The translations under genes and the position numbers were made by a program. Positions 24,930 through 27,642 of a stretch of DNA of 64,000 bases are shown piece by piece; the first letter of the stretch is position 1, and each line of letters begins with the position of its first letter. The stretch is taken from contig CAVOJR010000001.1 in assembly GCA_963696295.1 (NCBI GenBank), forward strand, positions 2,368,001 to 2,432,000, read 5' to 3'. Below the pieces are notes generated by a model that saw nothing but the letters and a program-made list of their open reading frames with translations, was not told where the DNA came from and searched no databases. This stretch comes from an uncultured Chlamydiae bacterium. Its GTDB lineage: Bacteria > Chlamydiota > Chlamydiia > Chlamydiales > JAJFMB01.

Positions 24930-27642
24930 AAAGGTGCTGGTGATCGGCGCCGGACCGATCGTGATCGGGCAAGCCTGCGAGTTTGACTATGCCGGCACAC
25001 AGGCCTGCAAAGCTTTACGGGAGGAGGGGTGCAAAATGATCCTCCTCAACTCCAATCCCGCCACCATCATGACCGACAGCGCCGACGCGGTTTACATCGA
25101 TCCCATCACACCCCAAATGGTCGAAAACATCATCCGGCGCGAACGCCCCGACGCCCTTTTGCCCACCATGGGAGGGCAGACGGCTTTAAACTGCGCTAGA
25201 GAGTCGGCTTCTATTTTGGAAAAATATGGAGTCCGTTTGATCGGCCTGACGCTCGAGACCCTGGAGAAGGCAGAAAACAGATCCATATTTCAAGCGGAAA
25301 TGGAGAAAATCGGGTTAGAGGTGCCAAAATCCTATTCGGCGCATGAGGCAGAGTTTCCGGTGATTGTCCGCCGCTCCTTCACTTTGGGCGGGCAGGGAGG
25401 GGGCGTCGCGCATGACTTCGAGGAGCTGGAGCGACTCTGTCAAGGAGGGGAACTTCTGATTGAAGAATCGCTGATAGGGTGGAAGGAATTCGAACTCGAA
25501 GTCATAAGAGACCGGAAGGGAAACTGCATTGTCGTTTGCGGCATAGAAAATATCGATCCCATGGGGATTCACACGGGTGATTCCCTGACTGTCGCACCGA
25601 TCCAGACCCTGACCGATAAAGAGTATCAGCTGATGAGAAAAAAGGCTTTTCAAATCCTGGAAGCGATCGGCATGACCGGGGGATGCAATGTCCAGTTCGC
25701 CGTCGACCCCAAAACAGGCAGAATGCTCGTCATTGAAGTGAACCCGCGGGTTTCCAGGTCATCGGCCCTCGCTTCCAAGGCCACCGGCTATCCGATCGCC
25801 AAAATCGCCGCCAAGCTCGCCCTGGGATACCATCTGGATGAATTATACCTAAACAACTTGATGAGTTGGGAATTGGGCAAGGAGGTTCCTTCAATTTTTT
25901 TTCCGGAGCGAGTGACCATTGCCGGTAGGCAAGGCACGAGTGAGGACGAAAAATTGAAGGTAAAACCGACGAAGACCAAAACCAACTCTTCAAGTTGTTT
26001 GGGTATAAGTTACGGAACAATGCCCGCCTTTTTCGAACCGGTCATCGATTATGTGGCAGTGAAGATTCCCCGCTTTAATTTTGAGAAGTTCCCCGAGGCG
26101 GACCGCACCCTCACCACCCATATGAAATCGGTCGGCGAAGCGATGGGCATCGGCAGCACCTTTAAAGAAGCGCTGAATAAAGCCATTTCCAGTCTGGATG
26201 CCCCATGGCATCCCAGGGGTTCTTACGATCCCTGGTTTACGGCGCAAATCGACGAACTGATGGCGGAAGAAGAAGCTGTCAAATTGCTCGAAACAATTGA
26301 CCTTTACCGTCTGAAACGGATGGGCTTTTCCGATGCGAGGCTGGCCGCGCTTTTAAAGTGCGGTGAGGAGCAAATCGCGGAAAGGCGAAAGGAACTTGGC
26401 CTCTATCCCGTCTATAAACGGATCGACAGCTGCAGCGGCGAGTTTCAAAATGAGATAGCCTGCCTCTATTCGACCTACGAAGAGGAGTGTGAAAGCGCGC
26501 CCACCGGAAAGCCAAAAATTCTGGTCTTGGGCAGCGGCCCCAACAGAATCGGGCAGGGAATAGAATTTGATTATTGCTGCGTCCATGCCATCAAGGCCAT
26601 CCGGGAGATGGGGTATGAGTCGATCCTGATCAACTGCAATCCCGAGACGGTCTCCACCGATTACGATACTGCAGACCGCCTCTATTTTGAGCCCCTGACT
26701 TTAGAGCATGTGCGCGAAGTGATCCGCATTGAGAAGCCCCTGAGAACCCTCATTTCATTTGGGGGACAGACCCCCTTGAACATCGGCAGGCATTTAGGTC
26801 TTACCCCCCCTTGCATAGACCTGGCCGAGGACAGAGAGAAATTCCGCCTTTTTGCCGCGAAAATCGGGCTGAAGCAGCCGCAAAACGCCGTTTTTTCAAC
26901 ACCTGCAGAGGCCTCCCAAATGGCCAAAATAATCGGGTTTCCCCTGATACTCAGGCCCTCGTACGTCATTGGCGGCAGCGGCATGCAAATCATCCGGAAT
27001 GAAAAGGAGCTTGAGGCGCAAGGCCCGTTGGCAGCTCCCGTTCTGATGGAGGCGTTTTTGGAAGGGGCTATGGAAGTCGAGGTGGACGCCATCAGCGACG
27101 GCAAAGAGGTGTTTATCTGCGGCATTGTCGAGCAGGTGGAGCCGGCTGGAATACACTCCGGGGATTCCATGAGCTTCCTCTCCCCTTATAAACTGAGTAA
27201 ACAGTTTCAGGAGGCCCTGGTGGAGCAAACGAGAAGGATCGCCCTTTCCCTTCAGGTGGTGGGCTTATTGAATGTCCAATTCGCCATTCACAACGGCGAG
27301 ATATTCGTCCTGGAAGTGAACCCGAGGGCTTCCAGAACCATTCCGTTGCTATCCAAGACAACCGGTCTGCCCCTTGTGCAAATGGCCACGAAATGCCTCC
27401 TGGGCCTCCCGTTGGAAAGCGGCATAGCCGAGCCGAAATTTTTGGGATTAAAGCTGCCGGTTTTTCCATTTTCAAGGCTGCATATTGAAGAAAAGCTGGG
27501 GCCGCAAATGAAATCTACGGGCGAGGTTTTATGCACGGGCCGGACGTTTGAAGAATTGTTTGCCAAGGCAAGGCTATACGCATTGCAGGATAAACATCTA
27601 TTTACAAAGGATTTAGAGTCGAAACTCTCACCAAATCGTTAA
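24907..27642 (+). CDS. carB: Carbamoyl-phosphate synthetase large subunit, streamlined (no C-terminal allosteric domain), with a 54-aa in-frame insertion
   Basis: [70 protein letters not shown]; ends about 35 aa after MKSTGEV. Confidence 0.95.
25844..26007. mobile_element. Palindromic MITE-like element inserted in frame in carB (160 bp plus apparent TA duplication)
   Basis: Terminal inverted repeats ttatacctaaacaacttgatgagttgg / ccaactcttcaagttgtttgggtataa (25/27 match); inner IR ccttcaattttt / aaaaattgaagg; removing 162 bp restores [18 protein letters not shown]. Confidence 0.85.

Follow-up and report, generated by a model that had tools for sequence, protein, structure and literature searches.

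Palindromic repeats inserted in frame into protein-coding genes are known from Rickettsia, and the review sections that deal with them leave their mode of movement open; these RPE insertions are probably near-neutral, with gmk as the example given there (PMC2229807). The ERIC repeat, also called MITEEc1, is assigned to the IS630 family in the relevant passages of two further papers (PMC8613203, PMC11434687). In-frame MITE fusions and the filing of ERIC under IS630 are already known; what sets the present element apart is the avoidance of stop codons in two orientations without conservation of the peptide, and the in-frame collapse of the element. Our search of the open-access literature found no paper on the present family in Chlamydiae, and the supplements of MITE censuses may list it.

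We analyzed a 64,000-nt stretch of DNA (the window) from the genome of an uncultured Chlamydiae bacterium (G000; 3.43 Mb, 2 contigs, 97% complete). A preliminary description had placed a palindromic element at 25843..26008, in frame inside carB and adding 54 amino acids. The arms, the inner pair, the open reading frame, and the CarB cut-offs all agree with such an insertion. The outer arms were as described (25843-25869 and 25982-26008, 27 nt, 93% complementary), but we place the element proper at 25844-26007 and count the outermost T and A as flank, because other copies begin TATACC. The features of the locus, in window coordinates, are as follows.

25844..26007, plus strand: whole element with TA at both ends; 164 nt, with 160 nt between the TAs and a net gain of 162 nt; better-folding transcript orientation.
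25844..25869, plus strand: left terminal inverted repeat; its symmetry with the right end is broken by private changes at 25850 and 25862.
25982..26007, minus strand: right terminal inverted repeat; contains the exact 21-mer common to Vibrio and Shewanella ERIC-type repeats and matches IS630 ends at 21/27 positions.
25888..25960, plus strand: inner inverted repeat (25888-25904 pairs with 25944-25960) enclosing an apical hairpin.
25906..25943, plus strand: a pair of GAGYGA motifs, one at 25906-25911 and one at 25938-25943, predicted to form two tandem G.A steps around two pairs; the motif pair is also present in E. coli ERIC.
25851..25979, plus strand: 129-nt (43-codon) stretch between direct repeats of both ends (CAACT at 25854 and 25983, AGTTG at 25864 and 25993); its loss gives a 35-nt in-frame remnant.
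25846..26007, plus strand: 54 inserted codons, CarB residues 314-367; pLDDT below 50 at 319-367.
24907..27642, plus strand: carB, 911 aa, frame intact, short form; passes both NCBIfam CarB cut-offs, with no Pfam MGS domain listed.
23964..24929, plus strand: carA, small subunit (context).
27707..40048, plus strand: HoxN-type nickel transporter, sulfhydrogenase-like NiFe hydrogenase subunits, hypF (35504-37672), hypD, and hypE (context).

Excision of the 162 nt restores the conserved CarB stretch in frame, as had been predicted. Alignment of homologous CarB proteins, a check proposed in the preliminary description, revealed the empty site: residues 314-367 are absent from 11 homologues of the same order and from 107/107 measurable database homologues (spacing was measured by flanking motifs, and 12/119 homologues were not measurable with the motifs used). 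An isolated sequence together with a segment shared by CarB homologues had been named as grounds for abandoning the idea; instead, the genome holds further full copies and the homologues lack the segment. The spacing across the site is 93 residues here and 39 after removal, compared with 34-43 in the 107 homologues and 39 in five close relatives, which indicates that this loop is naturally variable. Compared with E. coli CarB, the restored site is short by 4 residues, having no equivalent of M336-I339, and the insert takes that place. In the AlphaFold model of CarB, the mean pLDDT is 87.6 and values below 50 are confined to residues 319-367. The 25 closest CarB matches are also of the short form (no Pfam MGS domain listed), and one close match is labelled Chlamydiae.

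The short carA-carB pair lies directly 5' of the nickel transporter, NiFe hydrogenase, and hypF/D/E genes (window 23964-40048). HypF consumes carbamoyl phosphate, according to the relevant parts of two papers (PMC4506123, PMC12130793), and the pair possibly encodes a carbamoyl-phosphate synthase linked to hydrogenase maturation. Genes for a phosphoketolase and a plasma-membrane-type proton P-ATPase are found 5' of carAB (window 18828-23949), and an alternate (N-type) F1F0 ATPase operon lies past the hyp genes (window 41402-47769).

A copy count, also proposed earlier, identified the element as a member of a multi-copy MITE family, with about 7 full copies at 94-100% identity and many copies shortened by deletion in G000. 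The element has the attributes of bacterial MITEs: it is short, bears terminal inverted repeats, is dispersed in multiple copies, and duplicates TA. Its translations matched no family in Pfam or NCBIfam, and no transposase is encoded. A survey of the phylum, in which two candidates were scored per genome and G043 was left out, detected the carB-type family in at least 43/300 genomes and 25/165 genera, which bears out the suggestion of a repeat family in a chlamydial lineage. Database records with the same element were mostly Chlamydiae assemblies, with one labelled Burkholderiales.

The suggestion of repeated in-frame insertion into genes held as well. Within G000, 10/27 two-ended copies lie inside long ORFs; their net length is a multiple of 3 in all ten, compared with 8/17 outside. 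The fetched loci contain 45 distinct near-full copies: 29 have a length of exactly 164 nt, and 20 fall within long ORFs, 18 of these in the carB phase (the ORF assignment was lenient on start codons, and some N-terminal cases may precede the true start). Host genes include those for an NRPS thioesterase, HemD, and CoiA, as well as several N-terminal regions. The element peptide matches 127 protein clusters. A scan of the 40 longer clusters assigned a Pfam family to 17, and the insertion is clearly internal in LplA, SpoU, KdtA-like, and AMP-binding proteins; the peptide also occurs inside an MbnB-type domain or protein.

Several other repeats were seen alongside this family. A second 164-nt family in G000 has the same ends and a different core, and two more 164-nt chlamydial families have common ends and unrelated cores (C1:1037214 and 1370391 in G000; L004, L013, L007, L381); one of these other families is found, with the frame kept, within an MbnB/TglH domain and within CoiA. 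Unrelated repeats of at least three additional multi-copy families were also seen in G000 (flank of C1:487835; C1:649153, 238655, and 2771257; flanks of 1024246 and 212097). Many in-frame copies fall within the first 20 codons of ORFs, in signal-peptide-like stretches and often in the hydrophobic phase-1 frame (L037, L040, L042, L045, L047). Chlamydial-type elements or ends were found on contigs labelled Burkholderiales or Verrucomicrobiae and in metagenomic Chlamydia trachomatis assemblies (L072, L063, L109, L126), which may reflect transfer or mislabelling. In G000, about 50 nt separate a one-ended copy (C1:3091438-3091554) from an IS200/IS605 element, a proximity that is probably coincidental.

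The preliminary description had noted TA on both sides of the element, and two nested insertions established the duplication of one TA. In the first, at C1:487835, the interrupted sequence is another repeat, free copies of which align gaplessly with a single TA only. In the second, at C1:2884433, the element interrupts an older copy of itself, again at one TA. Five sites were tried, of which these two were informative and the other three gave no spanning match. The family thus inserts at TA and duplicates one TA, with a net gain of 162 nt. The AT bias of the insertion flanks is mild. Some copies interrupt earlier copies of the element or are stacked on them, repeatedly at the same internal TA (C1:2884245-2884640 and 2629574-2629849).

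The ends of the element resemble those of ERIC-type repeats. The 21-nt end was found exactly in Vibrio, Enterovibrio, Shewanella, Psychromonas, Arsukibacterium, and others (Vibrionales/Alteromonadales), where many of the elements that bear it are 127 nt long. One such 127-nt element matches, at 76% over its length, a repeat present in 4911/5426 E. coli genomes; compared by eye, this repeat appears to be the ERIC/RU-1 of Table 1a in Delihas (PMC2759123). The resemblance stops at the ends. The core aligns with the ERIC core no better than shuffles do, the length is 164 nt, and the ends of E. coli ERIC score below 0 on the chlamydial end profile, the exact 21-mer matches being Vibrio and Arsukibacterium forms. 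By sequence, we regard the element as ERIC-ended but not ERIC in the strict sense. Elements of 265-281 nt with the same ends, long unrelated cores, and all frames closed were also seen (L056-L164; Shewanella, Enterovibrio, Psychromonas).

A link to IS630/Tc1-mariner elements had been suggested. We built a profile from the MITE ends and scored it on the flanks of IS630 relatives and on internal control windows. Scores of at least 10 bits were obtained for 10/111 3' flanks and 1/80 5' flanks (11/191 IS630 flanks) and for 0/230 internal controls, and the best were chlamydial. The right end of the carB copy matches three or four IS630 ends at 21/27 positions (L266, L171, L369, L370), including intact chlamydial ones (L266, L171) and one from Xenorhabdus. 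In G015, an IS630 has ends with spacing equal to that of the MITE ends, and in G087 a variant start, TATACTCAA (variant sixth base), is common to the IS and to 61 MITE-end matches. IS630s with matching ends coexist with the MITE in G008, G015, and G087. TATAC ends were scattered across these IS630s in a FastTree tree built without support values. The TATAC-ended IS630s (L266, L171, L263, L366, L370) follow the pattern TATAC-N10-T[GC]AA and resemble the MITE at 19-22/27 positions, a likeness compared at the ends; unlike the MITE, they encode a transposase of 344-360 aa. The left end of a Vibrio ERIC-type repeat matches the end of a Vibrio plasmid IS630 at 25/27 positions; comparison of the plasmid IS630 ends L370 (NZ_AP019851.1) and L366 (NZ_KP791968.1) with the ERIC-type loci L061 and L064 gave 25/27 and 23/27, which makes these IS630s candidate movers of the Vibrio ERIC.

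The end similarity thus stands, but we found no IS630 with these ends in this genome; no IS630 was found in the 97% complete G000 assembly and hence no cognate transposase. Nor were IS630s enriched in genomes positive for the family: those like L181 (E value 1e-40) occurred in 5/43 family-positive genomes, compared with 22/258 others, a count over 301 genomes that rests on relatives of a single IS630 query. Genome G201 carries many such IS630s and 0 MITE-end matches. Transposases are gained and lost, and assemblies drop them. For these reasons, the poor co-occurrence weakens the link to IS630 but does not refute it.

Other candidate movers were examined and rejected. One weak IS630-like match in G000 had an E value of 0.145, or of 8 with a profile built from 89 transposases; it coincides with a lone degraded end, and we did not accept it. 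The multi-copy insertion sequences of G000 have different ends, and no reverse transcriptase was found in the genome. HUH/Y1 transposases did not co-occur with the family, and 5/11 end-positive genomes have none; the element also differs from REP/RAYT (HUH) repeats in having no association with a Y1 tyrosine transposase and in the presence of a TA duplication.

We then considered the reading frames. The consensus of the element is open in phase 2 only, on both strands. For the frame test we took one best-hit copy of exactly 164 nt per genome from 20 genomes (mean identity 76%), dropping other lengths. Both phase-2 frames were open in 16/20 copies, compared with 2.4-3.3 expected with random placement of substitutions, and 0/2000 simulations reached 16; as these copies are related and their changes paired, the significance is overstated, and 11 of them lie in long ORFs. 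The opposite frame is also open, though a gene needs one frame only, which argues that selection acted on the element lineage. The pN/pS ratios in the two frames were 0.91 and 0.76, and changes were even across codon positions. The sequences therefore point to strong stop avoidance, and selection on the peptide was not detected. The idea that the element creates new peptide segments is literally correct, since residues are added, but the peptide shows no detectable conservation (pN/pS 0.91) and the insert is predicted to be disordered. Other families with the same ends never have both frames open. The in-frame length is not universal: three chlamydial cores are 164 nt, yet the form carried by G087 is 163 nt.

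The element can also shrink in frame. Each end contains a small palindrome, which places direct repeats exactly 129 nt apart. Loss between these repeats leaves 35 nt, a net 11 codons, in frame. Three 35-nt remnants occur in G000, arising by both repeats, and more were found in another genome. For carB itself, run X1 contained one 151-nt contig (depth 2) that joins 25850 to 25980, with one other difference and the same junction as a genomic remnant. The run also contains other exact pieces of the window. The contig, however, stands alone, is of read length, and spans a strong hairpin, and it may have arisen as an artefact of the library.

We consider it probable (about 0.78) that the carB element is a non-coding MITE with ERIC-type ends, situated in a variable CarB loop with the frame preserved, likely copied by an IS630 transposase in trans and probably tolerated as a disordered loop. 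On this reading, insertion at TA, with the duplication described above, adds 162 nt. An IS630 transposase would recognize the TATAC-N10-T[GC]AA ends; with none found in the genome today, the carB copy is probably stranded. A TA at codon positions 2-3 (here in the Leu codon TTA) admits the element in either orientation without a stop, as is seen for the phase-2 frames. Lineages with both frames open would be the least harmful in gene-dense genomes and may have spread for that reason, the peptide itself being unselected. Finally, the direct repeats of the ends permit 129-nt in-frame shrinkage, as observed at other loci and weakly at carB.

The main point that this model leaves unexplained concerns the fold. 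A check by RNA folding had been suggested, and the plus strand indeed forms one long hairpin (-84.8 kcal/mol, z -11.5, 0/200 shuffles as good); the opposite strand gives -67.8. Among copies, 40/62 hairpin pairs change on both sides, including 15/16 pairs of the inner helix, and we counted 196 covariation cells, whereas shuffles gave 51 and slid controls 17-26. G-U outnumbers A-C by 75 to 24, or by 42 to 22 when two consensus wobble columns are excluded. The GAGYGA pair is retained in 16/24 modal copies. A cut-and-paste transposase requires ends only. End recognition alone does not explain why the inner helices show covariation and strand polarity. The family might instead spread, or be selected, as a folded single strand of RNA or DNA, with the IS630-like ends necessary and the inner G.A fold recognized by a second factor or aiding the transposase; the occurrence of the motif pair in E. 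coli ERIC also favors such a step. Template switching between arms can yield compensatory changes without selection. Such arm-to-arm correction could explain the pairing, though not obviously the polarity. Against a single-strand step, neither a reverse transcriptase nor a consistent Y1 HUH partner is present, the TA duplication suits IS630, and the exact GAGYGA pair is absent from the other families with the same ends. Nor did the family show a replication-strand bias in G000 (6/17 on the leading strand, P = 0.33), and Rfam gave no match up to E 1. A strict genome-wide search of G000 for the G.A module returned only family copies, one tandem repeat, and one other site. On balance, we judge movement or selection as a single strand unlikely.

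It is less likely again that the insertion inactivates CarB and that the gene is an early pseudogene keeping its frame by chance. The insert does lie in the carboxyphosphate half, about 30 residues past the conserved ENPR/SRS catalytic stretch, and the portion of the survey by Delihas that bears on this found ERIC never inside conserved domains (PMC2759123). However, the frame is intact, the invariant columns of CarB are retained, and identity to the nearest relatives is 67-76%; relatives delete up to 9 residues at the same loop. This is the sole full-length carB found in the genome, which argues that the insert is tolerated, and users of carbamoyl phosphate are present (HypF and an ATCase-like gene elsewhere, the latter scanned in part). 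The AlphaFold model likewise suggests that the insert is probably a tolerated, predicted-disordered loop of 54 residues. Three private changes in the carB copy, all non-synonymous (P>L, K>M, C>F), include two that disrupt the end symmetry, which suggests that the copy is probably decaying. Least likely of all is co-option of this copy, whether as an mRNA hairpin tuning carB and the downstream nickel/hydrogenase genes or with the first inserted residues replacing the four missing from CarB: ERIC hairpins influence mRNA stability in Yersinia, by the account in one review section (PMC2229807), the carB mRNA has the better-folding strand, and residues 314-318 lie outside the low-confidence segment, but the insertion is found in one CarB only, 4-5 changes separate the copy from its closest sister copies, it is unremarkable that all three private changes are non-synonymous, and the collapsed contig suggests that loss of the hairpin is possible.

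An IS630-moved, stop-free element would explain the repeated addition of probably useless loops to working proteins. For in-frame palindromic repeats, the family offers an observed TA target and named candidate transposases, and the same comparison connects the ERIC-type ends of Vibrio with a plasmid IS630 (25/27 bases). It also separates two things that are usually merged, selection against stops and selection on the peptide. Since 127 protein clusters bear the peptide, it can mislead those who annotate chlamydial proteins. For tests, the carB copy is well suited: CarB is easily assayed, and this is the sole full-length copy found. A broader reading, which we regard as doubtful, is that the element is a protein-compatible selfish element, stop-free in both orientations and able to contract to 11 codons with the frame kept, and that it and ERIC are members of an IS630-dependent superfamily that needs a strand-specific folded G.A core, which would amount to an undescribed single-strand step in DDE-type MITE movement. 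If true, it would name the mover of ERIC and describe a general way for enzymes to acquire internal loops and later trim them.

The known systems differ in how far they match this element. The preliminary description had likened it to the Rickettsia palindromic elements. RPE-1 and other RPEs are likewise hairpins of about 150 nt that, in an intracellular lineage, interrupt unrelated housekeeping genes without shifting the frame, and frequent in-frame insertion in unrelated genes is found here as well. Kinship by descent did not hold up, in a comparison at the protein and profile level: eight frame translations gave no NCBIfam match up to E 10, RPE1 (TIGR01045) was unmatched in the genome, and the ends point to ERIC. 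The review entry lists the target duplication of RPE as unknown (PMC2229807), whereas the chlamydial element duplicates TA and its transposase family can be named; unlike RPE, it shows no detected conservation of the peptide. RUP of Streptococcus pneumoniae is likewise a TA-targeted MITE tied by its ends to an IS630, IS630-Spn1, but, as the review's RUP section has it, RUP carries stops in all six frames and is intergenic (PMC2229807), in contrast to the chlamydial element. ERIC (IRU/RU-1, MITEEc1) shares the TATAC ends, the TA duplication, a long hairpin, and open frames fused to genes, as described in the parts of two papers that treat it (PMC2229807, PMC2759123), as well as the GAGYGA pair of the E. 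coli form. Compared with ERIC, the chlamydial element is 164 rather than 127 nt, has a core unrelated by alignment and symmetric ends, gains a net length that is a multiple of 3, and is open in both orientations. It enters conserved domains, for which the ERIC survey, in its relevant part, reports no case (PMC2759123), and its hosts are Chlamydiae rather than gammaproteobacteria. Together, these comparisons suggest an element that behaves like RPE, has ERIC-type ends, and is likely moved by IS630.
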